Positions 6,325 to 34,603 of a stretch of 34,603 nt of DNA are shown here, piece by piece. The position numbers were made by a program, and so were the translations under genes. Origin of the DNA: a virus (taxonomy: Duplodnaviria > Heunggongvirae > Uroviricota > Caudoviricetes); IMG/VR virus record IMGVR_UViG_2541047739_000006; one strand, given 5' to 3'. The first letter of the stretch is position 1, and each line of letters starts with the position of its first letter. Below the pieces are notes generated by a model. That model was given only the letters and a program-made list of their open reading frames with translations. It was not told the DNA's origin and did not search any database.

Positions 6325-6961
6325 GTTGGAGTCATTACCGACGCGCCGAGCGTCTTTTTTTATGTCGTAGGTCTGACTCACCCATTTTTTGGGCGTTGGT
6401 GTATAATCCAGCGCCTTTGTCAATCAATGGTGGCTCAGGCGGGGGCTTCTTCGGAAGCGCCGGTATCCTTCAGAGCCGGTTACGCCAACCCTGTCTGGGC
6501 TACCACCAGCGAAATTGGCGTTTCCGGTGGTAGCGTAACCTGCTATCTGAAGGAGGCTGCCACATGCTGGCTACTACCCCTACCCAAAAACCGCAATTTA
6601 TCTGGATTATCGCCGCAGTTCGCCGCGATTGCCCGACAATTACCGCCAAAATTCATCATATTGCTGCCGAGTCTGAACGCGATGCTCGCCGTTCTCTGGT
6701 GCGCGATCACGTCTGCTTTTTTGCTGGTCGTATCCGCATGGAGGTGGCACATGATTAAAACCTACGATGTGCATATGGATCCCCTCGAACGCACAAGCCA
6801 GATCATCACACTGACAGAAGTGATTAACGACATTCTGGTGAGCAACTCTCCCTCACGAGACGAAAGGCTGAAGGCGTTACTCGCGATATTGGATCTCGCC
6901 GTTCGTGACGTTCATTTCCTGCTGGAAGGTGGCGAAATGCCAGGAAAAACGGGGGCAACCA

Positions 6962-21279: not shown

Positions 21280-21378
21280 ATGGGGGTACTTTTGGGGGTA
21301 TCTATAAAAAATGAACAATAAAAAAGGCAACAAAAACAAAGCTTATCGCCTATGTGTATTGTTCCTATTATCGCACAA
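21280..21378 (+). other. putative attR of the P4-like element (arm-type repeat ATGGGGGTACTTTTGGGGGTAT plus degenerate core TCCTATTATCG-CACAA)
   Basis: 21/22 match to the arm repeat at 1557; TCCTATTATCG at 21363..21373 matches the thrW 3' end at 1428..1438, then diverges. Confidence 0.4.
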
Positions 21379-21983
21379 TCAAGAAAATCAATAACTTAGC
21401 TTAACTTCTCTAAGAAATTGTATCTTCTGTTATCACTTACAAACGCCTATACGTTGTTATGGGCTTTGGTAGTGTAACACGTATGGGCGAGTAGTTCCCA
21501 GGCTCAACCTCGTAACAAGTTCCTTTGAAGCTGGAAGACGTGCCACCGTCTCTAAACCTTCTACCAAAACTCTTAGCAAGATGTTCCACACCTGGCGCGG
21601 TGTCCAATGATGCTACACGTCGTGAGACGTTGCAGAGGATAAACAGGCTAAATGATGGGAAGAGTTTTAAGTGCAATAGTGGATCAAAGCCCACCTCTTC
21701 AAAACCTAACTTGATCGGGAAAGAATCAAGCTCTAGCACGGTTTCGTCCACCGGAGTACAACGGGTGCCTGATAAGAGAAGAACTGCTAAGACTTCATAG
21801 CTTTTGTGAAAAAGCCCTTTTAGTGGATACGCCTACGGCGCTTATTTTTTGGGGTAGCCCATCAAAGGCGCTTTATGGCTCCTATTGTCTTGAAAATGTA
21901 TCTTTACTTGTATTGTGTTTTATGCGTAGTCTCCCTGTGTAGTATGTAACTTGTTAATTTTCATATGAATACAGAGGCACACG

Positions 21984-22142
21984 ATGAAAAACATTGCAGC
22001 TATCAAACGTAATAACCGCAAGATTCACGCTCGTAAGTTCCTGTCTACGCCAGAAGGAAAAGCCTGGCTAGAGCGTAAACAGAGAGAGAACGAAGAAAGA
22101 AAACTCCTTAATGAGTTGAAATGGCTTAGAGAGGATTTCTGA
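21984..22142 (+). CDS. hypothetical small basic protein (52 aa)
   Basis: ATG with GAGG 8 nt upstream; K/R-rich helical-looking sequence; below ORF-track cutoff. Confidence 0.3.
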   Translation: MKNIAAIKRNNRKIHARKFLSTPEGKAWLERKQRENEERKLLNELKWLREDF

Positions 22143-22310
22143 AAATCTCCAGAACGCAACAGGACGCATTCTAACGCTATTTTCATTGCTTGGTATAGGG
22201 ATGTATAGGTGATGTGTGTTTAATGCGTCTGTGCGCTTGTTTTGTGCCTTATTTTGCATTTTCATAATGCAGAAGAGAACACGGAAAACCTTAAAATTAA
22301 TTATTGGGGT

Positions 22311-22472
22311 ATTTAAGGGTATTTTCAGGTGATTTAAGGGTATTAAACTTGATTTAATTGATTAAAATATAAACAGATAGTTGTGTATCTTATTGATTTA
22401 TAAGGTTATTTTTAAATAAAGGTAAATAAAAAATAAATAGCCATAAATAGCTATAAATACATCTAAATACCT
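22311..22472. repeat. direct repeats ATTTAAGGGTATT x2 (22311, 22332) and four tandem ~10-bp units TAAATAsC (22434..22472)
   Basis: Read directly in AT-rich non-coding DNA; helical-turn periodicity. Confidence 0.55.
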
Positions 22473-22610
22473 ATATCCCTTCCCTTATGGCTAGATTGCG
22501 AGAGGTGCTTAACGCGATTTTCAGCGCCCCCCGATCTGGAAAATCCAGAATCCCCAAATATCAGCAAGGAATTTTCTTGCGTAATCAACATCGTTTTTAC
22601 CTATTAAATC

Positions 22611-23925
22611 ATTACACAGAAAGCCTTTCTGTAATGTCTCTCACTAAACTTTCACTAAACACGAGAATGATCGGTTTTATGTCGGATCAGATGCTAGAAA
22701 CAGCACCACGTCTCACAAGGACTGTAAGCGATGAAACCAGTGTTTATGCGGGTGCAGGTCAAAATATAGGCCAAAATCAATTTAACATAATAAACGTAAT
22801 ATGCACTAAGGAACACATAGAACGCCTTGAGTTGATGTATCAGGGGAAAAATGATGGATTTTTTACGTAGGAGCACGAGAGGGCTTCTGTTGACTTTTGT
22901 ATGCTATGAAACATAATTAAAGGTTTTTTTGTTTTTATTGTGTGATGTAGTGGATTACACAGGGGAATAGATTAAATGGTGTTCTGTTTATACAGGTTTA
23001 TTTGTTAGATCAACAATTTGGCATTTCTAAACAGATGTTTGAACGTTGCCAAATGTCTTGACAACACAAGAAAAGGGCTTGCTATGCCACGCATTACACG
23101 AAATAAGGCTGTAAAAACAAAATAAATTTTAAAATTTGCACAAACGAGAAAACTCGTTAAGAAACAAGCAGAACAATTTTTAGCCAACAATTTCTGATGG
23201 TGCTCTGTAGGCCGCACTACACAAGGATTTGCGAAAGTGATGTAAAAGTGAAGAAAGTAAGAATTGCACTTTTAAGCTACTTTTCATTGAATTTTTAGTA
23301 TGGAATTACACAGGAATAAGTTAGGGATATTCTATGATTTACACAGGGAATATAGGGGATTATGGCACACACATAGAAAGGCATTACACAGAGTGAGTGC
23401 TATGTGATGATTGGTAGTAACGGTAGGTCATAGTGAGCTAGGGGGTAGGTCACTGTGAACTACAATAAGACTATTAATAAAACTATATTAGATTATTAAT
23501 TAGATCATAATAATAATATTCTTTATATCTATATATATGATCTTTTGCCTTCCGGCGTTAGCTTCACTCTCTGGCAAGCAGCCTTACTCCGCTACCTTTC
23601 GGGCTTCGTGGCTGGCCCGTTCCGCTCACACCGAAAGCAAAGCGTTACTTTCTTCGTGTAACTTCGTTGGCGGTAACGCCCACGAAGAAATCTATTGCGC
23701 TGTGCGCAGTAAGAGTAATCACCTAACCAATCATACTGATTGCTTATGTGTTAACTCTCTCTAACTCTTAATTACCCTCCTACATTTAATAACTCTGTTA
23801 TTCTCTGTAGTTGTGTAATTACTCGAAGAGAGAGCGGCTAAAGCTCAATTACACTCTGCTTTCCTCGTGTAATTTCACTAAGCCTCAATACAATTTCACT
23901 TCCTACATTCTGTAGTCGTGTAATT
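22611..23925. repeat. dispersed iteron-like motif ATTACACAGG(G)AATA: about six forward copies (22611, 22954, 23093, 23305, 23337, 23383) then about four inverted copies (about 23655, 23813, 23866, 23916)
   Basis: Read directly; forward copies cluster upstream and inverted copies downstream of a GC-rich hairpin island. Confidence 0.55.
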
Positions 23926-24561
23926 GTTTTCGGTGGAAAAGCCAGAGGCGACACCGAAAGAGAATTCTGATCTTATTAATCTTATCTATCTTAGTTAATC
24001 TTCTTACTTATCTTACTTACTTTATCTACTTTATTATTAATAATAGCTTTATAAGCTCTCTGTGTAGCTCTCTGACGCAAGAAACAGCATTCAGGAAGGG
24101 AATCACCTTAGAAAAGGTGTTCTTTGCGTCATAATGTGTTTTATGAAGGATTCAGAGGTGTTTCATAACAGGAATGTATAGAGAATACTTTAGGTAATTA
24201 AAAATAAGGGGTCTAAATGCTTCTCTAACAGCATTAAGCAGGGTAGGGAATGGAAACGCATTGCCTACATATAATAAACTCACTACAGGGCTTTACAGGG
24301 CGTTTTATAAAGTGACTCTCTGTTTTATATCTACAATCACCTTTTCATATACCTAACAAATACAAAATAAGCCCCTTAAATAAGCCTCTGGCGAGCTAAA
24401 CAGACATTACATAAGAGAATGTATTGCTTTTATCAAAACTTCGTTAGAACGCGTTTTAGAGCGTTTTAGCGGATAATGAAGAATAGCACTACACAGAAGA
24501 GCACGAATTGCCAAGACAAATTATAACATGCTGAAAAAGATCGATTTTTTCGAAAAGGGTA

Positions 24562-24590
24562 TTGACAAATGTTTCTTTATATGTAATAAT
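24562..24590 (+). promoter_or_regulatory. sigma70-like promoter (TTGACA, about 17 bp, AATAAT) preceded by palindrome TTTTCGAAAA
   Basis: Consensus -35 at 24562..24567; AT-rich -10 at about 24585; about 115 nt upstream of the first gene of the operon. Confidence 0.35.
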
Positions 24591-24703
24591 AGGTATTAGA
24601 GGGACAGAAAAACATTCTTCTCTAAATAATCAAAATCAATGCACTTTGAAGCCGTCAGGCTTGCAAGGTGTTTTATTTCTTTTAACTGAATAAGGAGTTT
24701 TTT

Positions 24704-24892
24704 ATGAAATGGTTTACACCGGAGCACGTCGTAAAGGCATTTAAAAAAGGTGAGCTTACACGCCACCAAATAGTAATGAATCGTAATATGGCAAGGAGTC
24801 GAGGTTATCCAGAGCGAGCAGCTTGCTTCAATGAAGCACTCAAGATTATTGATGAACTAAGAAAAAATGAAAAAGAATCTGAAACAGAGTAA
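24704..24892 (+). CDS. hypothetical small protein
   Basis: 62-aa ORF with AAGGAG 7 nt upstream of ATG. Confidence 0.55.
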   Translation: MKWFTPEHVVKAFKKGELTRHQIVMNRNMARSRGYPERAACFNEALKIIDELRKNEKESETE

Positions 24893-24911
24893 AGAAGAGA
24901 AGGAGAAAACT

Positions 24912-25082
24912 ATGAGCGAAGCTACAGAAAAGAAAAGACAACCACGCACTTGCTTTCATATTCCTGATGAAGTATTTCAGGTGTTGTTTAAAGAAGCCAG
25001 AAGTAAACGTATCACTGTTACAGATTACATTCTTGATATGTTGAAAAGAGAGGCTGAAACACTCTCAAATAAAAGCAAGTGA
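24912..25082 (+). CDS. small putative DNA-binding protein (56 aa)
   Basis: AAGGAG 7 nt before ATG 24912; the listed 24867 start overlaps the upstream gene. Confidence 0.5.
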   Translation: MSEATEKKRQPRTCFHIPDEVFQVLFKEARSKRITVTDYILDMLKREAETLSNKSK

Positions 25083-25135
25083 TTTTTATCACCATAGTAG
25101 CGCCATAGAGCGTGATTACATCAAGGAGATTTTTA

Positions 25136-25828
25136 ATGATTAACCAACTAACTTTTACAAAACACTATGACACGTTTGATAATATATCAAAGATTTATTC
25201 TGATAAATTCCCTCAAGGAAAAGATTTAGATCTATTACATATTGTGCTTTATTTTCGATTCCTTAGTTATCAGGAAAACAACCTTAATTGTTATGAAAGT
25301 CACGAAACATTAGCTAAGATTTTTAAGTCTTCACCATCAACAATTAAACGTAAGATAAACGATCTTAAAGAGATGGGATTATTAGAAACATCCCCACATC
25401 CTGATCCGTATATTTCATCTTTGATTTACAATGCTCTCCCTCTCACAGATGCACATATTACTCCCCCAGGAGAATCATCACTCTCTGATCTTTCTGAGGC
25501 AGAAGAAGCACAGGAACAACCTAAAGGCCATAAACAGCCTTCTTTTGATGTTCTTGATGATGATTGGGATACGCCTTTACCCTGGGAGACGGAAGAAACA
25601 CCTGTTTCATCAAGTGAAAAGGTAGCTAATGATAATGAGGAGGATGTGTTAGAGAATTTTGCCTCTCTTATCATCCAGGAGAAACACAAAAGAACAGGAG
25701 GGGCATCATTTATAGAATTTGCAAATTCACTAGCTTGTAGATACGGGCTAAAACGACCAAATGGTATTGAGGCATATTTTTCTAAGCATTACCCAAATGT
25801 ATACGAAGACTTTGATATTCCCTTTTAA
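25136..25828 (+). CDS. replication-initiator-like protein (wHTH N-domain, acidic linker)
   Basis: AGGAG before ATG 25136; ETLAKIFKSSPSTIKRKINDLKEMGLLE helix-turn-helix; acidic stretch DLSEAEEAQEQ...DDDWDTPLPWETEE. Confidence 0.6.
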   Translation: MINQLTFTKHYDTFDNISKIYSDKFPQGKDLDLLHIVLYFRFLSYQENNLNCYESHETLAKIFKSSPSTIKRKINDLKEMGLLETSPHPDPYISSLIYNALPLTDAHITPPGESSLSDLSEAEEAQEQPKGHKQPSFDVLDDDWDTPLPWETEETPVSSSEKVANDNEEDVLENFASLIIQEKHKRTGGASFIEFANSLACRYGLKRPNGIEAYFSKHYPNVYEDFDIPF

Positions 25829-25844
25829 AAAGTAAGGAGGACTA

Positions 25845-26123
25845 TTGATACAGTATTTAATAAAAAGCAAAGTAGACAGAATTCAGTGTAACGACACAGG
25901 AAAACGCATCTACGAAACGCTTGCTTACCTCTATAAAGGAAAGCCAACACCGCTAAAATATAGCGATGTGTTACATCGAGCAGGTTGCTCTGAGTCAGGT
26001 TTAAAATTCTGGCTGAAACAGCTATCAAATTTCGGTGTTATTGAAATGAAAGAGCTGTCTTTCTCTACATTTAATCTCAAAAGACTAGATAAAGAAATAG
26101 AATTCATCTATTCCACTCTCTAA
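25845..26123 (+). CDS. hypothetical small wHTH-like protein
   Basis: 92-aa ORF with AGGAGG upstream. Confidence 0.55.
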   Translation: MIQYLIKSKVDRIQCNDTGKRIYETLAYLYKGKPTPLKYSDVLHRAGCSESGLKFWLKQLSNFGVIEMKELSFSTFNLKRLDKEIEFIYSTL

Positions 26124-26255
26124 AATCTCTCTATGTAATTAAAATATAAAAGGAAAACATTATTATGATAGTAGCTATGTATTGGTTATTGTTCTTTCTC
26201 ACGTTAGAAGCATATTTCGGGGTGTTTTCCTTTAAAAGAAAAGGAAAAGTAAATT

Positions 26256-26666
26256 ATGGCAAAAAGAAAAAACAACGTTGTTAAGAAAATCGGTGATTCA
26301 GCTTCTCTTCTAAGTAAACCTAAATCTATTCTAAAACGTAAAGACTTTAAAGAGCTAGTTACGCTCACCAAGCATAATAGCGCCCCTGGCGAATGGAAAA
26401 CAGAGATCATAGAACATTCTCCCTCTGTGCCTTGTGGAGATGAATATATCGCCTTACAAGAAATCTTATCTTCAACACCTGGCGTGTTCTGGAAACCTAA
26501 AAAAAGAAAAGAGTATATCGTTGATAGCTCTGATTTACGCAAATACCAGATTTTAGGATTTGAAGATTATAATCACTACGTTGGTTATCTCGCCACAAAT
26601 GGCCTAAATAATTTAGTTCCTGAATTCCAGATTTTAGATAATGCAGATCACTATGGAGACTTTTAA
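26256..26666 (+). CDS. hypothetical protein with basic N-terminus
   Basis: 136-aa ORF starting MAKRKNNVVKKIG. Confidence 0.6.
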   Translation: MAKRKNNVVKKIGDSASLLSKPKSILKRKDFKELVTLTKHNSAPGEWKTEIIEHSPSVPCGDEYIALQEILSSTPGVFWKPKKRKEYIVDSSDLRKYQILGFEDYNHYVGYLATNGLNNLVPEFQILDNADHYGDF

Positions 26667-26667
26667 T

Positions 26668-27006
26668 ATGAACAAAAACACGTATGACACAATTTACTCA
26701 CTAATTAATTATTATGAGGATGATTACCTCCTGCCTTTAAACCGCGCTGAACTTGAAGCATACAAAGAAAACACGCCAGCGGCACTAAATGAGGCGTTTA
26801 AACACTGGGATTTAGCTGTGAATGCCTTTGAGCACCTCTCTAAGCGTGTAGAGATGCTCTGTAAGCGCGAAAACGCATACCTGACAGCCGATCAGGTATG
26901 GGAATTATCAAACTGGATAGAAGATATTGAATCTGATGTTCGCTATGTGGGAGATGGACTTGTTGAACTAGCGCAACGCTTAGGCGCTACTATCACAGAA
27001 GAATAA
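26668..27006 (+). CDS. hypothetical protein (113 aa)
   Basis: ATG 26668 right after the upstream stop, GGAG upstream; the listed 26641 start overlaps. Confidence 0.55.
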   Translation: MNKNTYDTIYSLINYYEDDYLLPLNRAELEAYKENTPAALNEAFKHWDLAVNAFEHLSKRVEMLCKRENAYLTADQVWELSNWIEDIESDVRYVGDGLVELAQRLGATITEE

Positions 27007-27256
27007 AAAAAGCAACAAAAAAGTTGTAAAATATCTTGGCATTCCATCTATTGTATGTTAATATAATTATATAGGGGTGATTATTTTTCCTTTATTGGTT
27101 CGATATTAAAAATTCTTCCTGTCATTAAAGGGGAGTAAAATCTCCGCTCCCCGCTTCTTCTCCTCCTTAAGTAAATACTGTGCCATTATACCTCTTTGTT
27201 ATGCATACATCTTGGAGTATGCATAACATAGGGTAATTACATAGGTATGAGTTAAT

Positions 27257-27288
27257 AAAAGGCGGCTTTAAATGCTGCCTTTTATTTT
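27257..27288 (+). terminator. intrinsic terminator between the early and structural operons
   Basis: AAAGGCGGC-TTTAAAT-GCTGCCTTT stem-loop followed by TATTTTG. Confidence 0.45.
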
Positions 27289-27350
27289 GCCCGTTATACA
27301 ACTTAAAAGTTGTATTTCTTACTTTAAACAAGGTAACAAGGTTTATATAA

Positions 27351-27563
27351 ATGTTGCTCTTAAATGATAAAGAGCAAATCATCAAGTATAAAGATGAAAT
27401 GCTGAAAATTAATCCACAAATTACCGAAATGGTAGCTAAATACGCTGGGTGTTCTGTCGAGGAAGTAGAAAGATGTGTTGAAAAATATTTTTCTCCTTCT
27501 TCTCCGTCTACACCTTCCCTTAATGAATTAATCAAATTAAAAGCTAAGGAGATTACTAAATGA
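27351..27563 (+). CDS. hypothetical small protein
   Basis: 70-aa ORF; its stop overlaps the next start. Confidence 0.5.
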   Translation: MLLLNDKEQIIKYKDEMLKINPQITEMVAKYAGCSVEEVERCVEKYFSPSSPSTPSLNELIKLKAKEITK

Positions 27564-27922
27564 TTATTGATTTAGACACTCTGTTTCCAGTTCGAAAGAC
27601 TTTCACGGATATTGTAAGTTATTGTACTGATCCGTTTGCCTCTGTAGAAAGCAAGGTTTTTGCTTCTCTTCCTGCTGATGTTGAGTGCGGCGACTTGATC
27701 ACCAGCACTGGCGCTAAATATGAATCAGGAGATGATATTTATGTTGTTATGAGTGAATTTGTAACGGCTGGAGAAAACAAGCCTGTAGATGTGCTACGTA
27801 GCAATGCTGGGCTTGTATGCATCAAAGCTGATGCGCTGAATGCTGTAAGTGAAGCAGCAAAAACAGCATTAATTAAAAAAGGCTTTCAGCTTGAAGGGTT
27901 CCATTCTGTTTTCACTTCTTAA
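27560..27922 (+). CDS. hypothetical protein (possible scaffold/decoration-type partner of the next gene)
   Basis: 120-aa ORF, ATGA-coupled to the upstream gene, 18 nt before the 342-aa gene. Confidence 0.6.
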   Translation: MIIDLDTLFPVRKTFTDIVSYCTDPFASVESKVFASLPADVECGDLITSTGAKYESGDDIYVVMSEFVTAGENKPVDVLRSNAGLVCIKADALNAVSEAAKTALIKKGFQLEGFHSVFTS

Positions 27923-27940
27923 TAAAAGGAATAATAATAA

Positions 27941-28969
27941 ATGATTCTAGGTAATGATTACGTTGATTTAGCTCCTCTGTTCTCTGCGCATAGCACTAGA
28001 AATTATCTACTTTCTACTCTCGACTTCACTGATCCGGTGGGCGTTAGTTCTCATAAAGTAGCTGTTTCCCAGCTTGTCGAAAGCAACGAATCTCTCTTTA
28101 ACAAAGAGACAAGCCGTTTTAGTTCTGAACACAATGTTACTAAGCGAGAACAAGGTAAAGAATGGCTGATCGAAATCCCTTACTTCCTGCGTGAAGATGT
28201 GATCCGTCCTTCTGATGTTCAAGGCAAGCGTAAGCCTGGCACTGATTTTCAGGAAACACTCACTGATATTTATGCTGACTATGTTGCTAAACACCACGTA
28301 GCGTATCAGCGTACAAAAGAGAGCGTGCTGGCTGCATCTCTGTTTAGCGGTAAAACTTACACGCCTAAAACTGATGATGTTCTTATCGAGTGGAGCAAGC
28401 TGTTTAACGTATCAGCTATGAAAGCCACTGTGAACGCTTCCAGCACTGACACCACGAAGATTTTTAAAGAATTTGATCAGATTGCTACTGACATTATCGA
28501 AAAAGCACAGAGTCAGGCGGCGGCTGTAGAGCGAATTGTTGTTTTCTGTAAGCCGGAAGCCTTCTCTGCAATTCGATTCTCTGCTGGTATGGCAAACGCA
28601 TTCCAGTATGTAAGCCCACTGGAAGAGGGGAACGTTGTGTATCAGCGTCGTGACCTGCTGCCAGGGGTGACAGCGTTCACTATTCCAGGAACTAACATTG
28701 ATGTTGTTAAACTGGTAGATCCGCTACACCTGGCACATATGACCGCAGACGCTGTAGCTGTGCCTAAATTCTCTAAGGGTAGCGGAATTTATACCAACAT
28801 CTACGGGGCTGCTTCCAGCACCTTTGAACTGATTAATGCCGCTCCTGCTGAGGTGTATAGCTATAGCTATGAATCTTCTCGTGGTGATGCTGTTAACGTT
28901 GTTACAGAGAATAGCCAGATGGTGGTAAACCACGGTGTAGGCTTCTCCGTTCAAATCACTGTTAAATAA
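27941..28969 (+). CDS. major structural-like protein (342 aa), family unknown
   Basis: Long ORF followed directly by a strong intrinsic terminator, as for a highly expressed capsid or coat gene; beta-rich C-terminus. Confidence 0.75.
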   Translation: MILGNDYVDLAPLFSAHSTRNYLLSTLDFTDPVGVSSHKVAVSQLVESNESLFNKETSRFSSEHNVTKREQGKEWLIEIPYFLREDVIRPSDVQGKRKPGTDFQETLTDIYADYVAKHHVAYQRTKESVLAASLFSGKTYTPKTDDVLIEWSKLFNVSAMKATVNASSTDTTKIFKEFDQIATDIIEKAQSQAAAVERIVVFCKPEAFSAIRFSAGMANAFQYVSPLEEGNVVYQRRDLLPGVTAFTIPGTNIDVVKLVDPLHLAHMTADAVAVPKFSKGSGIYTNIYGAASSTFELINAAPAEVYSYSYESSRGDAVNVVTENSQMVVNHGVGFSVQITVK

Positions 28970-28987
28970 TATTTTAACGTGTAATAG

Positions 28988-29022
28988 AGGCGTGGCGTGA
29001 ATAACACGCTTCGCCTTTTTTT
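28988..29022 (+). terminator. intrinsic terminator
   Basis: AGGCG ... inner hairpin GCGTG-AATAA-CACGC ... CGCCT followed by TTTTTTT. Confidence 0.6.
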
Positions 29023-29055
29023 ATTTATTTTTAAATTTTGAGAGGTGATTAAAAT

Positions 29056-29259
29056 ATGGAAGTGATTTTGAAATCAAAAAATGGTGTACACGTACATTTA
29101 GATGCTAATGATTCTAGAGGATTGTTAAATCTGAAATATCTCTGTTCTCTTTTAGATGTTCCCTATGAAGGAGTAAAAGCCCGTATGTTCAGATTAAACG
29201 AGAGTATTGATCAGGCTCTACACCATTTCTTAAGCAAAGAAGGTGGTAAAAATGATTAA
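29056..29259 (+). CDS. hypothetical small protein
   Basis: 67-aa ORF with GAGAGG upstream. Confidence 0.5.
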   Translation: MEVILKSKNGVHVHLDANDSRGLLNLKYLCSLLDVPYEGVKARMFRLNESIDQALHHFLSKEGGKND

Positions 29260-30178
29260 TAAGGGGATTTTAAATGTTAGAAATTAACACTTCTAAAATT
29301 AAGAACACAGTAACATTTAGTGTAGATAAAGACAGCTTGAAAAAAGCGAAAGACTCTATTACAGGCTTAAAGGAATTTGCAGAGAATATCAAGCCAGCTA
29401 AGTTAAGGTTTGATAATGTCACTAAAGGCTATAAGAAAGCACAAAGTGAAGTAGACAAGATTGCTCAACAGAAAGCTAAAGCCGAAAAACAGAATCAAAG
29501 AGTACAAGCTGCCGCAGCAAGAGCACAGGCAAGGCAACAGCAACAAATAGCAGCACGTAAAGAGAAAGCAGAATTAAAACTCCTCGATGTGTCAAGCTCT
29601 ATCAGTGCAATGCACCGTCTCTCTGTAGCTGAACAATACAAAGCTATTGCACAGGCTAGAGAAATTGCCCTCCAATATGAAAGAGGCGCTATTAGTCTGG
29701 CACGTATGAATAGCCAGATGAAACGCTTACAACAGCAACAACGTAAGATTAATGGCAACAGAAAAGCACAATTAGCCCCCGTTAAGGGAGGATCAGGGAA
29801 TTCCGCCACTATGGGCGCTCTGTTATTTGGAGGCGCTACGGCTGCTGCTGGCGTGATGGCTGTTAGTAAAGCGTCGGAGTTTGTTAGTAGCAGTTTCGCT
29901 AACGCAGAGACCCAAGGGGAGCTAATCCAACGTGCAAGGCTTGGCGGTGTAGACGTTAACCAGATGTATAATATTACAGAATGGGCGTATAGAAACGGCG
30001 TTGACTCTATGATGGGTGATCAAGGGGCTAGGAAATACCTGGATCAGATGAAAGATGTTAGGGAACGTGCCGCAAAATCCTACAGTGAAGCTGAATTGGT
30101 GAAAGACAAGAAAACCGGAAAATCTGAATGGAAAGGCGGTGATAATGCTATTAATGAACTTCTAAACTGGATTTGCCC

Positions 30179-31084
30179 CTATATTTCCAGACATCTGTTA
30201 TCACTTAACCCATTACAAGCCCGCTGCCGCAGATATTCCCGTGGCGAGCGATAACCCAGCGCACTATGCGGATGCCATTCGTTATAATGCTCGAACGCCT
30301 CTGCAAGGTTCTTTGCTGCCGTTAACCCGTCTGGTTTGGGCATGATACTGATGTAGTCACGCTTTATCGTTTTCACGAAGCTCTCTGCTATTCCGTTACT
30401 CTCCGGACTCCGCACCGCCGTGTTCTTCGGTTCAAGTCCCAACATCCGGGCGAACTGGCGTGTTTCATTAGCCCGGTAGCATGAACCATTATCCGTCAGC
30501 CACTCCACTGGAGACGACGGAAGATCGTTGCCGAAGCGGCGTTCCACCGCTCCCAGCATGACGTCCTGTACTGTTTCACTGTTGAAGCCGCCGGTAGTGA
30601 CCGCCCAGTGCAGTGCCTCACGATCACTGCAGTCCAGCGCGAACGTGACACGCAGTCTCTCTCCGTTATCACAGCAGAACTCGAACCCGTCAGAGCACCA
30701 TCGCTGATTGCTTTCTTTCACGGCCACTCTGCCTGTATGTGCCCGTTTCGATGGCGGTACAGCAGGTTTTCGCTCAAGCAACAGCGCATTCTGGCGCATG
30801 ATCCGGTAAACACGTTTGGCATTGATCGCAGGCATACCATCAAGTTCTGCCTGTCTGCGAAGCAGCGCCCATACCCGACGATAACCATACGTGGGCAGCT
30901 CTCCGATAACATGGTGTATACGGAGAAGCACATCCGTATCATCAGTGTGACGACTGCGGCGGCCATCCATCCAGTCATCGGTTCGTCTGAGAATGACGTG
31001 CAACTGCGCACGCGACACCCGGAGACAACGGCTGACTAAGCTTACTCCCCATCCCCGGGCAATAAGGGCGCGTGCGCTATCCAC
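30179..31084 (-). CDS. insD: IS2 OrfB transposase (InsD)
   Basis: 301-aa [34 protein letters not shown]...; recognised IS2 InsD. Confidence 0.93.
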
Positions 31085-31407
31085 TTTTTTGCCCGTCCAT
31101 ATTCAACGGCTTCTTTGAGGAGTTCATTTTCCATCGTTTTCTTGCCGAGCAGGCGCTGGAGTTCTTTAATCTGCTTCATGGCGGCAGCAAGTTCAGAGGC
31201 AGGAACAACCTGTTCTCCGGCGGCGACAGCAGTAAGACTTCCTTCCTGGTATTGCTTACGCCAGAGAAATAACTGGCTGGCTGCTACACCATGTTGCCGG
31301 GCAACGAGGGAGACCGTCATCCCCGGTTCAAAGCTCTGCTGAACAATTGCGATCTTTTCCTGTGTGGTACGCCGTCTGCGTTTCTCCGGTCCTAAGACAT
31401 CAATCAT
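31042..31407 (-). CDS. insC: IS2 OrfA (InsC)
   Basis: [41 protein letters not shown]...; recognised IS2 InsC. Confidence 0.93.
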
Positions 31408-32473
31408 CTGCTCTCCAATGACTAGTCTAAAAACTAGTATTAAGACTATCACTTAAATAAGTGATACTGGTTGTCTGGAGATTCAGGGGGCCAGTCTATA
31501 AACATCGGTGTTATTAACAAAAGCGACCTTAAAAAATTTGCTGATAATCCGGCTGGATTAATTTCTAAGGCTGTTAATGGAATGATGAAAAAAGGGTTTT
31601 CAGACTCCCAAATTGGACAACGTTTAGAAGACCTGGGCGATGATTTGATGCTTACGTCAAAATATTGGCAACGTTCCGTTAAAGATGTACAAGAAAGTAT
31701 TAATCAGCAAAAAGCCTCTGGAAAATGGCTAACAGAAACACAGCAAGACTCTATTGTTAAATTCAGAGAACTAAACAGACAGCTTTCACAGCTTTCTGAT
31801 GCAAGACAAGTAGCATTCGTAGACGGCTTTATGAAATCTCTCGATCCAAAAGTAACGGAAGAGTTTATGAAAAACCTTTCTAATCTCACTCCGTATTTTA
31901 CGAAGCTGGGAGAAGCTACAGGAAGTCTCTTTGAAGCTATTATGAAGATTGTAAACTGGTTTAATCGTAATGATGATAAGACAGATGCTATTCAGAAAAA
32001 TATGGGTGATGCACCGCCATTAAGCAATGAAGGGATGAAACAGAATCTTTCTAATCTCGTTCCTAATCAATATAAAGGCGCTGGCACTGCAACAACTACA
32101 CCTGATAATAGTCATTCTCTCTTTAACACAATTAAGGGATTGCTTTTCGATGATAATTCTTCTGTGTCAGATGTAAAAATGTCAGTCAATGAAGCACCGA
32201 TAACCAATCTCAAACAGGGTGCTTTAAATAATCTTGCAATGACAACTCCAGCTTATAATTTATCTCCTGTGTTTAATCTGAATCCTACATTTGAAGTGGT
32301 AACAGAAGTGCCGCTAACTATCGAATCAGACACCGGACGATTGAGCGATTATGTGGATTTTACAGCGAGAGCAAGTCGGGATAGCTTCTTGAAATCATTA
32401 ACATTAACCAGCTTATCAGGACAATCCAACGGCGGGTAATTCCCGCCATAACATTACAAGGAAAATTATTATT

Positions 32474-33187
32474 ATGGCGACCGCCGGGATTTTAACCATA
32501 CGTGCAGCAAATACTCCAGAACAACACGTTCAGGCTGTTTACAAAGCAGAACAAGATATAAATTCTACAAAAAACGAAAATAGCAAAGCTAATAAAACAA
32601 AAGGAGAGAACGGATTTGCTATTGTTACCAGTGGCTTGGCATCTTCTGGTAATGACGTTTATGAAAATTATATGGCACTGGCCTTTGATAGTGTTGACGA
32701 TGTGAACGTGAGACGTTCGGCAGATGTCACAAGCTACCCCGTAGAAAATGGTGCTACTGTGTCTGATCACGTTCAAATTAAAAACAATAAGTTCTCTCTT
32801 AAAGGGCGTATCACTGAAACACCGATTAAAAGCGATCCTGGCTTGTTAAAGAGTGCAGGGGTGAACGGGAACAGAAGATCATTAGCTATAGACTACTTGA
32901 ATCAGATTATGGACAGTAGACAGCCTTTTCTTCTTGTTACAGAAAATAAAACTTTTGAGAACGTTGTTTTAACAGGCATCGAATACACAGAAGAGGCAAG
33001 CGAATCCCTGGTATTTGATCTTAGCTTTGAACAAATAAGATTAGTTTCTTATGGTACTGTAAACACTGTAGCTATCAAAACACAGCCATCTAAGAACATC
33101 GGGGCGAATATGAAAAAACGTGTTAACACTGAAAAATCAAGTAGTGAAGGTGAAGACACTATTACTCCTGCCTTTAAACAGGAATAG
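32474..33187 (+). CDS. hypothetical structural-like protein (237 aa)
   Basis: Follows the IS2-split gene on the same strand; no recognisable catalytic motif. Confidence 0.65.
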   Translation: MATAGILTIRAANTPEQHVQAVYKAEQDINSTKNENSKANKTKGENGFAIVTSGLASSGNDVYENYMALAFDSVDDVNVRRSADVTSYPVENGATVSDHVQIKNNKFSLKGRITETPIKSDPGLLKSAGVNGNRRSLAIDYLNQIMDSRQPFLLVTENKTFENVVLTGIEYTEEASESLVFDLSFEQIRLVSYGTVNTVAIKTQPSKNIGANMKKRVNTEKSSSEGEDTITPAFKQE

Positions 33188-33268
33188 CCGTAAATGCCTC
33201 TAAAACGCTCTGTAACGATGTAATTATAAAAGAGGCTACCAATCTATGTTGAAGCCTCTTTATTGCGT

Positions 33269-34603
33269 CTATGGCGTTGTTTTGCGCATTAAATTTGATT
33301 TTTTATTGATTGATAAGCCTTTCTCTATTTCAGGGTAGCGTAGAAGCTCAATATAGTTTTTAAGCTCTACTGGAGAAGCTGCATTCTTGCTATATGTGCG
33401 GAATGTCTCTGTATTGCCGCGTGTATGGCCCAGGAGAAGGGCGATCCTGTCTTCTGGAATTTGATTTCGATCAAGAAGCTGTGCTACTCCGTGTCTCAGA
33501 GAATGAAACACCTTCCTTTCTGTTCCCTTTTCCCCTAAAGCCTTTCGTTTAGCTCTTGTAAATCTCTGCGTGTGCCACGTGGAACGTTTACCATCAGCAC
33601 GCTCTGTAATGCTGGCGTGATAGAACAAAAAGCCATTATGAGGCTTTTCACGCAGCGACAACACCAACGGAGTGATAAGGCTATGCACAGGCACAAGACG
33701 TGCCGCAGCTTTCGTTTTTCCCTGTGTGATTTCAAAACACAGCACACCTTCGATCTCTTTCACATCGTCTATTGTGAGACTTGCTATCTCATTGATCCGC
33801 ATACCTGTATAAGCACCGATAAGACACAAAGCCATCATTTCTTTGTTTTCTGCTGAATCACCGGAAAATACTTGCAACACCTGCAATAGCTCTTTGTTAG
33901 AAAATGCCTCGTAGCTCTCTCTACTTTGTGCCACATCAAGCCTATGCCCTCGCCAGGGGGAGAGCGCCCTTTCTGGCGCATCGTGGTAACGTGATGAAGC
34001 TAACTCCCATAGCTGGGCCATTGGGCTGATATAATTTGCAATTGATTGTTGTGAAAGGGTTTTTTGCATGTGTTCTATCCAGCCTGTAACAGTGGTGCGG
34101 CTTACATCTTGCAATGCAATATCAGGCTTTTTACGGTAGGAGAGAAACATCTCTACCGCTTTTCTTGCCTTAGCTAAAGTGGCTGGCTTCTTCTTCGTGC
34201 TGTTAATTGTCAGGTAGATTTCAAGAATTTTAAGCAATGACGGACACGAAGACGCTGTATCTTGCATTCTGGTAGCTGTTTTGGCGTATTTAGCCTTACT
34301 GCGTAACAGTTCCAGCGTGTTCTCTATTGTGCTGTTTACAGGGGCGACACTCTCCCGTAGACAATGGTATTCATCTGCAATCTGATCACGCTTTCTACGT
34401 GCAACACGAAGACTACTTGTGTGCAGACTTCTGACAAACGTCCTTTTTCCTTCAAAAAAGGGCTGCATATACACAGGCAACGTGATCCTCAAATAGTAGT
34501 TACCGTAAGAATCACAGATTATGTATTGATTGGGCTTGTATCTCATAAACTCCCCGGCTAAAGTGTCGGAGCGTTTGTAATGTGAAAATTGATTGTAACG
34601 CAT
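33269..34603 (-). CDS. tyrosine site-specific integrase (second element); 5' end at window edge, possibly incomplete
   Basis: 444-aa ORF with tyrosine-recombinase motifs (YTGMRINE arginine, HSLRH, LLGHT, nucleophile Y in TFRTYSKN); the initiator ATG is the last three bases of the window. Confidence 0.85.
   Translation of the reverse strand: MRYNQFSHYKRSDTLAGEFMRYKPNQYIICDSYGNYYLRITLPVYMQPFFEGKRTFVRSLHTSSLRVARRKRDQIADEYHCLRESVAPVNSTIENTLELLRSKAKYAKTATRMQDTASSCPSLLKILEIYLTINSTKKKPATLAKARKAVEMFLSYRKKPDIALQDVSRTTVTGWIEHMQKTLSQQSIANYISPMAQLWELASSRYHDAPERALSPWRGHRLDVAQSRESYEAFSNKELLQVLQVFSGDSAENKEMMALCLIGAYTGMRINEIASLTIDDVKEIEGVLCFEITQGKTKAAARLVPVHSLITPLVLSLREKPHNGFLFYHASITERADGKRSTWHTQRFTRAKRKALGEKGTERKVFHSLRHGVAQLLDRNQIPEDRIALLLGHTRGNTETFRTYSKNAASPVELKNYIELLRYPEIEKGLSINKKSNLMRKTTP

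Follow-up and report, generated by a model that had tools for sequence, protein, structure and literature searches.

The origin of phage lambda consists of tandem dyad-symmetric repeats of about 19 bp placed at about two helical turns, an AT-rich stretch, and a palindromic sequence, and its O initiator has an N-terminal portion of the winged-helix type. The oriV of RSF1010 (IncQ) contains iterons, an AT-rich region, and the ssiA and ssiB hairpins, which are used by the plasmid primase and are active only when single-stranded. The box A heptamers of P1 parS have the sequence ATTTCAC. Iteron origins in general are defined by iterons, a winged-helix Rep protein, and a DNA-unwinding element (DUE) (PMC4980987). 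The PLE satellite of Vibrio cholerae has a non-coding region with four repeat families, only one of which is the RepA iteron (PMC7145576). The locus described here lies in a 34,603-nucleotide stretch of DNA (IMG/VR record IMGVR_UViG_2541047739_000006), called the window below, which is a piece of Escherichia coli chromosome with a P22-like prophage and a second integrative element at the thrW tRNA gene. The second element has a 2.5-kb non-coding control region (22143-24703, 64% AT) with no annotated gene, and it is the interval 22611-23925 of this region, rich in copies of the heptamer ATTACAC, that is compared with the known systems.

The best explanation of the interval, held with moderate confidence, is that it is the replication-control region of a satellite-like element at thrW, made of a lambda-ori-like core and, separate from it, the ATTACAC copies and a hairpin domain. 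The core at 23422-23535 appears from its sequence to be a lambda-ori-like iteron origin, because an iteron and AT-rich module is found there and the gene for a Rep-like winged-helix protein follows 1.6 kb downstream. The iterons are two dyad-symmetric 19-mers on the plus strand, GGTAGGTCA(TA/CT)GTGA(G/A)CTA, which occupy 23422-23462 at a 22-bp pitch. The unit can be written GGTAGGTCAyrGTGArCTA, and its two copies, starting at 23422 and 23444, are in tandem and helically phased. Immediately to the right is an AT-rich stretch of 73 bp (23463-23535, 87.7% AT), a candidate DNA-unwinding element. No DnaA boxes or integration host factor (IHF) sites were found in 21300-25200 except at unrelated positions.

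The same arrangement is present in the relatives of the element, where an AT-rich stretch follows the repeats in every case read. The relatives have four to six repeats at 22-25 bp, and the repeat families at the iteron position differ. In O26:H11 the unit of the window is repeated 5.3 times with a 22-bp period and a 96% match. O104:H4 has four copies of CCTAGGAAATGAGTTCC, while O157:H16, 1410D004, and APEC have five or six copies of ACCCyAACAGAAwwCTGTTA. RM9131 has GGGGTAGTTCACTATGAGCTA plus TACCCCTATCAAnnnTGATA, and PEC389 has yet another repeat set. The O26:H11 strain 11368 (locus L003, 4590-4920) contains two complete modules of repeats and AT-rich stretch in tandem with different specificity, the second type being just upstream. 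It also has extra TGTAAC-N5-GTTACA palindromes, and its non-coding region is lengthened to 3 kb.

The candidate replication initiator is a 230-aa winged-helix protein of the HTH_36 type (25136-25828, plus strand). It matches HTH_36 at 1.1e-5 and the replication-initiation family phrog_270 at 9.7e-10, as well as O-like families of PHROGs, and all four Rep variants of the relatives match HTH_36 together with the replication-initiation and O-like families. Across seven loci the N-terminal domains of Rep fall into four types, each paired with one repeat family, and the C-terminal domains assort independently. This co-variation is the best available evidence that the 230-aa protein would read the 22-bp repeats. 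The position 23422-23535 thus has helically phased tandem repeats, an adjacent AT-rich stretch, and a putative cognate initiator with matching domain types. The pairs of Rep N-terminus and iteron would be a specificity determinant, and they look like swappable modules of incompatibility or immunity.

By analogy, the origin of the window most resembles ori lambda, with dyad repeats and no DnaA boxes. Both have the order of repeats, AT-rich stretch, and palindrome, and the O-like PHROG matches of the 230-aa protein add to the likeness. In contrast, the candidate origin of the window is separated from the downstream initiator gene by 1.6 kb, and that of lambda is inside the gene. The element also lacks a P-like loader, has only two repeats, and has a palindromic flank of 430 bp, compared to 28 bp in lambda. 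RSF1010 oriV has the same order of iterons, AT-rich region, and hairpins, and a conserved stem sequence common to the hairpins. However, it has two hairpins of about 40 nt with its own primase and helicase, whereas the window has about ten within 430 nt, and the element encodes neither a primase nor a helicase. P1 box A is one base off ATTACAC, and in both cases the copies occur in both orientations around a central site. The element differs from P1 parS in that it has no ParA/ParB-type genes, and in that its copies are spread over 1.3 kb and many of them are hairpin stems. An iteron origin with a winged-helix initiator is an already-known kind of system. Known origins account neither for the hairpin domain, with its size, its selection, and its repeated stem, nor for the polar heptamer. 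The iteron plasmids RK2, F, P1, pSC101, and R6K share with the window the winged-helix Rep, the helically phased tandem repeats, and the adjacent DUE (PMC4980987). Their repeats are for the most part direct and asymmetric, are bound by monomers, and occur together with DnaA boxes, while those of the window are dyads without such boxes in an integrative element. PLE is likewise an island of the phage-satellite type with a long non-coding region and a semi-palindromic iteron for its own initiator, and the rest of the replisome is absent (PMC7145576). It has no sequence similarity to the window element, and no hairpin domain of such size has been reported in it.

ATTACAC is more frequent in the 2.5-kb non-coding region than any other 7-mer. 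The window contains 12 copies against 4.3 expected, and nine of them are inside 22611-23924. In 2000 dinucleotide shuffles of the interval the expectation was 0.28 and the maximum four, and none reached nine, which bears out the recurrence of a motif described in the initial annotation. The order given there, forward copies and then inverted ones, is also borne out. To the left of the AT-rich core, TT[AG]CAC occurs eight times on the plus strand and never on the minus strand, and to the right once on the plus and four times on the minus strand (Fisher p = 0.007). This polarity is seen again in seven related loci, and a single forward copy (23848) stands amid the right-hand inverted ones. Neighboring left-hand copies are separated by 343, 139, 42, 82, 46, 42, 33, and 45 bp and right-hand ones by 157, 54, and 51 bp, and the nearest ATTACAC-type copy is 80 bp from the AT-rich stretch. 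Because the spacings are irregular, the copies are a polar cluster and not an array.

Several parts of the initial annotation are changed by these results. The motif was given as about 15 bp long; its heptamer core is enriched, but the full form, ATTACACAGG(G)AATA, has only three matches in the region at up to three mismatches (22954, 23305, and 23338). The last two of these correspond to the two units of a 33-bp tandem duplication, which is not present in other element types. The copies were called an iteron array, yet they have neither regular tandem spacing next to the DUE nor co-variation with the initiator, and the true tandem repeats are the 22-bp-pitch 19-mers at 23422 and 23444, which the annotation does not mention. 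The interval was also said to mark a replication origin, and the iteron and AT-rich module together with the Rep-like gene agree with this, although the noted motif is not the iteron. A partition centromere, offered as another possibility, finds no counterpart among the element proteins, in which Pfam, PHROGs, and NCBIfam show no family of the ParA/ParB or ParM/ParR type. For the scanning of genomes, the lesson is that the most eye-catching repeat of an origin region need not be its iteron.

Five of the forward copies are in a conserved left block of 270 bp (23176-23445, plus strand). In an alignment of seven loci, no other non-coding part of the element family is conserved as widely, and the most diverged relatives match only 23176-23317 of the block. 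The copies are (A)CTACAC at 23216-23222, ATTGCAC at 23263-23269, ATTACAC at 23305-23311, TTTACAC at 23338-23344, and ATTACAC at 23383-23389, all of the TTRCAC type and 33-46 bp apart. Those at 23217, 23263, 23305, and 23383 are retained in all seven aligned loci, and that at 23338 only in the type of the window. The 23383 copy is half of an imperfect dyad. The block contains an invariant AT-rich hairpin with a variable loop (23233-23284). A structured RNA in the block was considered and rejected, since its folding is not exceptional (z -0.3/-0.8 for the block and +0.1 for the hairpin). In the APEC strain E18055 (L010, 6035-6050), the copy equivalent to 23217 is inverted in place between GCC and GGC arms, reading GCCGTGTGTAATGCGGC compared to GCCGCATTACACAAGGC, and this inversion has what reads as the signature of template switching in a hairpin.

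The remaining forward copies are in a variable accessory segment further to the left, which holds ATTACAC at 22611-22617, ATTACACAGGGGAAT at 22954-22968 (one of the three 15-bp matches), ATTACAC at 23093-23099, and TTGCAC at 23136, the three listed by their span being on the plus strand. The 22611 copy makes up the 5' arm of a small, imperfect palindrome, CATTACACAGAAAG/CTTTCTGTAATG (z -2.3). It is limited to some element types and has an equivalent in L003 and L005. By-eye comparison of the motif with consensus sequences (CsrA-type GGA, Tus/Ter, marbox, LacI/GalR half-sites, the P1 C1 operator, and sigma-70/sigma-54 promoter elements) accommodates a subset of copies at most, and the same applies to the consensus of P1 box A. 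Arm sites of the integrase were rejected as an explanation, as the motif is 1.2-2.5 kb from the attachment-site core at 21363 and thus too far away.

The form ATTRCAC is unchanged across loci with four different N-terminal types of Rep. Because the iteron repeats change with the Rep N-terminus and ATTRCAC does not, the heptamer is judged from these comparisons to be an element separate from the iteron, independent of Rep type, and not the Rep site. In the locus L002 the ribbon-helix-helix (RHH) protein is of an unrelated type, and yet the motif and the conserved block are kept. The downstream winged helix-turn-helix (wHTH) and RHH proteins, named as the most likely binders in the initial annotation, are therefore unlikely to bind it. 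The 62-aa protein conserved in all loci and proteins of the host or helper are the remaining candidates.

The hairpin-rich domain adjoins the AT-rich stretch on its right and comprises about ten imperfect palindromes over 430 nt (23536-23965, minus strand). Compared with shuffled controls, it folds with z -9.6 on the minus strand and -6.1 on the plus strand under RNA parameters, and with z -9.0 and -6.5 under DNA parameters. Its stems are almost purely Watson-Crick. The inverted ATTACAC copies at 23656-23661, 23813-23819, 23867-23873, and 23918-23924 are the 5' halves of stems on the minus strand, and the forward copy at 23848-23854 is the 3' half of the 23867 hairpin, with an 8-bp stem AATTACAC/GTGTAATT. 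The spacers of the dyads among the ATTACAC stems are 8, 12, 18, and 37 bp. Thus the inverted copies, taken earlier as protein sites, belong to the stems of a strongly structured domain and do not stand free as sites for a protein. As single-stranded DNA these hairpins are predicted to fold beside the candidate origin, like hairpins of the ssi type.

Whole hairpin modules are lost, gained, or exchanged between strains, which indicates that they are paralogous; the hairpins H1 and H3, for example, are paralogous and swap segments. The portion 23536-23700 is 100% conserved among strains that differ elsewhere. The domains of the L002 type (z -4.7/-4.9) and the L011 type (z -5.7/-3.7) fold well too, and both have diverged past blastn detection except for islands. 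Within this diverged sequence, the L002 type retains the right-arm copies in the form TTGCAC, and these pair with each other in a 9-bp helix. Four L002-type sequences have compensatory changes at five of 80 pairs, a number reached by none of 500 shuffles, and slid controls have none. The hairpin domain is probably under selection. A 65-nt piece (23564-23628) is 95.5% identical to 6001-6066 of L011, a distant relative with proteins only about 27% identical, which is located elsewhere in the chromosome, beside a gene for a TIR-domain protein. This identity points to either strong constraint or recent exchange.

In the mechanism that would follow, the 230-aa winged-helix protein binds the dyad iterons (23422-23462) at their 22-bp pitch and opens the adjoining stretch of 88% AT (23463-23535). 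The exposed hairpin domain would then fold as a single-stranded nucleic acid and, by analogy with the ssi hairpins of RSF1010, may serve as a signal for priming or for loading a primosome. The AATTACAC/GTGTAATT stem and the forward copies would be recognized by a factor common to all element types, such as the 62-aa protein or a protein of the host or the helper phage. The right-side ATTACAC copies would be the conserved base of a duplicated hairpin module, and the left-side ones comprise five in the 270-bp block and four further left. A more specific proposal, tentative and rather unlikely, is that the 430-nt domain represents a novel type of accessory to an origin, a series of paralogous hairpins with the AATTACAC/GTGTAATT stem at their base. 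These would be read as single-stranded DNA or as RNA by a primase or primosome of the host or helper, and the forward ATTRCAC copies would be double-stranded loading sites of the same factor. In that case a satellite that encodes no replisome would recruit a priming apparatus foreign to it.

The main rival is that the hairpin domain is the gene for a large structured non-coding RNA, with the ATTACAC/GTGTAAT pairs as its helices. In one version a minus-strand transcript runs from near 24530 toward the AT-rich core and is a pre-primer like RNA II of ColE1, and in the other a regulatory RNA acts on the terminator-bearing leader of the downstream operon, which has a conserved terminator that would need a regulator. 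The RNA folding is very strong and is better on the minus strand in two of the three element types, but the local stems, like those of DNA palindromes, have Watson-Crick pairs almost throughout, and the DNA z-scores are equally strong. The compensatory changes of the L002-type sequences and the full conservation of 23536-23700 suit an RNA as well, although the evidence on the strand conflicts between element types. A candidate extended -10 element, TGTTATAAT, lies at about 24520-24533 of the minus strand, in a divergent arrangement with the operon promoter, and it is conserved in L002 as TGTTATGAT; however, this promoter was called by eye and is under the scanner threshold. Neither a promoter nor a terminator at scanner level bounds 23536-23965, and no terminator follows the domain on either strand. 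Rfam gives nothing credible in 21300-25200 at E up to 5, and at gathering level the window has only the thrW tRNA and a prophage C4 RNA. Such an RNA, whether a primer or a leader regulator, is possible though unlikely.

It is improbable that the wHTH or RHH protein of the element binds the ATTACAC copies as double-stranded iterons or operators, with titration or with looping of the DNA around the origin as in handcuffing or in P4 ori/crr. The enrichment and the conserved polarity around the AT-rich core would fit such sites, as would the five copies 33-46 bp apart in the conserved block, the several copies that form dyads with variable spacers, and the RHH-like protein, which is 96-98% identical in six of eight loci. 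The motif is constant, however, while the wHTH N-terminal domain changes and while L002 has another RHH type with the same motif and block. Moreover, dyad spacers from 8 to 37 bp are unfit for one rigid dimer, and the number of right-side copies varies among strains through module loss. A packaging site is very improbable. The block and hairpin domain would then be a pac or cos region for the terminase of a helper phage, with ATTACAC as small-terminase repeats flanking the cut. Repeats on either side of a central site are known from P1 pac and from pacL/pacR of SPP1, and this likeness counts for a packaging site. The element also has capsid, tape-measure-like, and Dit-like genes without a terminase or portal and so must borrow its packaging, and 23176-23317 is the most conserved non-coding piece of the family. 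On the other hand, the block is not similar to any of 50,697 phage records at blastn sensitivity, and the center of symmetry is an iteron and AT-rich module that co-varies with a Rep-like protein, which suits an origin better than a cut. Finally, the motif might be functionless in itself and owe its frequency only to the duplication of a hairpin unit and of a 33-bp unit and to their homogenization by recombination, with a polarity inherited from the ancestral arrangement. The tandem duplication at 23305/23338, the exchange of segments between the paralogous H1 and H3, and the lack of the exact motif in L011 are in line with this. Yet four copies of the left block are kept in all seven aligned loci, the orthologous right-arm copies are kept as TTGCAC in the diverged L002 type, and unrelated left segments (L005 3701 and L008) again bear forward copies, so that this explanation is scarcely credible.

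Several observations weigh against the replication-control explanation itself. The local inversion of the 23217-equivalent copy between short inverted repeats, seen in one strain, is unexpected for a strictly polar double-stranded site, and L011, a more distant relative with a hairpin domain, has no exact TTRCAC. The covariation comes from four sequences of one element type, and the nearly identical sequences of the window type show none. The G-U pairs favor the minus strand in the window type (10 compared to 2), but several are on the plus strand in the L002 type. The profile scans of the element proteins found no recognizable helicase, loader, or primase, and the DnaA boxes are absent too. 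Because the best 120 of 665 Rep matches are at least 95% identical, no deep alignment of Rep was available. The AlphaFold model made without an alignment is poor (pLDDT 54), and no PDB relative was found by sequence, so that the initiator call rests on profile matches with E from 1e-5 to 1e-10. Since the dyad-symmetric repeats would also fit a dimeric repressor, the wHTH protein could be a regulator instead of an initiator.

Between the hairpin domain and the operon there is a spacer that is pyrimidine-rich on the plus strand (23966-24060, 78% AT), with short CTTA and CTTATCT repeats. The operon starts from a strong promoter of the sigma-70 type (24562-24590, plus strand), TTGACA-17-AATAAT with TG, which has 11 of 12 matches and is conserved in L002 and L005. 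Its leader is 110 nt long and contains a terminator-like hairpin (24641-24671) followed by a U-run, the whole spanning 24641-24684 on the plus strand. L002 and L011 have an equivalent hairpin of different sequence. This suggests that the operon is controlled by antitermination or attenuation. A pairing of 22100-22121 with the ribosome-binding region 24680-24701 (19 of 22 positions) is not conserved in L002 and was treated as chance. The first gene encodes the 62-aa protein (24704-24892, plus strand), which is conserved in all relatives, belongs to no known family, and has homologues confined to Escherichia. The second gene encodes the 56-aa protein (24912-25082, plus strand) with an RHH-like sequence pattern that has no profile confirmation: its one weak profile match is to a PHROG of unknown function (E 0.0044), and Pfam gives none.

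The window comprises proA (1-1254), the tRNA-Thr gene thrW (1369-1444), the P22-like prophage (integrase at 1610-2824), and the second integrative element of about 13 kb, which is inserted at thrW behind the prophage and extends from 21363 onward. Its left end is marked by the attachment-site core repeat TCCTATTATCG (21363-21373), an 11-mer identical to the 3' part of thrW at 1428-1438. In O104:H4 the element starts directly at the 3' end of thrW and the P22-like prophage comes after it. This reversed order indicates that they are two independent tenants of one att site. The gene order of the element begins with a few small open reading frames (ORFs), the non-coding stretch, the promoter and leader, and the 62-aa, 56-aa, and 230-aa genes. 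These are followed by several proteins of unknown families, a major capsid protein (MCP) of the lambda-E type, a 613-aa tape-measure-like protein, a Dit-like protein, and, listed last and on the opposite strand, a tyrosine integrase. An IS2 copy (30179-31407) divides the tape-measure-like gene into 29274-30167 and 31498-32439, and because of this split the window's copy of the element is probably defective for transfer.

Profile matches reveal no portal, terminase, protease, or tail tube among the proteins of the element (21363-34603). With its capsid and tail genes, it fits no satellite family that we know of among P4-like elements, PICI, cfPICI, and PLE, and it might act as a satellite by remodeling the head as well as the tail. 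A literature search for a described thrW satellite of such kind returned nothing relevant, and a scan of GTDB genomes with the MCP of the element returned one Escherichia locus. The carrier element appears to be a so far undescribed E. coli element resembling phage satellites. Its origin, specificity determinant, and hairpin domain offer handles on a possible new family of capsid- and tail-remodeling satellites, and on how DNA synthesis starts in a satellite without replisome genes. The non-coding region is carried by about 750 of 5426 complete E. coli genomes, or approximately one in seven, including the O26:H11 and O104:H4 outbreak lineages. RefSeq has no annotation for this region, which leaves one fifth of the element unannotated. 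In the largest ORF of the region (22487-22870) the differences in L005 are mostly non-synonymous.

The sequence to the left of the conserved block contains further unusual features. A 46-bp stretch at 22490-22535 (TTGCGAGAGGTGCTTAACGCGATTTTCAGCGCCCCCCGAT...) is 94-96% identical to a non-coding stretch in 54 records of large E. coli and Klebsiella myoviruses, which are Justusliebigvirus, Stephanstirmvirinae, and relatives. Apart from this stretch, no part of the region matches any phage. The stretch could be a regulatory or recognition sequence of a helper phage that was copied by the element. It is preceded by four phased ATAAATA repeats, including TATAAATA. Two runs of AT-rich repeats phased at 10 bp occupy 22307-22470, with GGGTATTTAA repeated about 3.7 times and ATAAATAGCC about 2.7 times plus variants, and they suggest intrinsically bent DNA upstream of the phage-like 46-mer.

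In many relatives (L002 13194-13745, L004 3429-3968, L009, L010, and L012), the left edge of the non-coding region is occupied by a gene for a DNA invertase (phrog_125, 7e-62), in place of which the window has an unrelated accessory segment. An invertible segment of the Hin/Gin type was rejected, as the window has no invertase and the left and right blocks are always on the same strand among the matches listed from 735 matching genomes. In the plasmid collection, the matches are solely mislabelled chromosomes and one copy of the element in an IncF plasmid. This copy (NZ_CP126938.1, 28000-48000; L012) is riddled with IS3, is located beside sopAB of the conjugative plasmid, and includes the integrase, the invertase, and the conserved block. 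The neighboring P22-like prophage of the window contains a C4 antisense RNA of the P1/P7 immunity type at 6423-6510 (Rfam RF01695, 79.9 bits).

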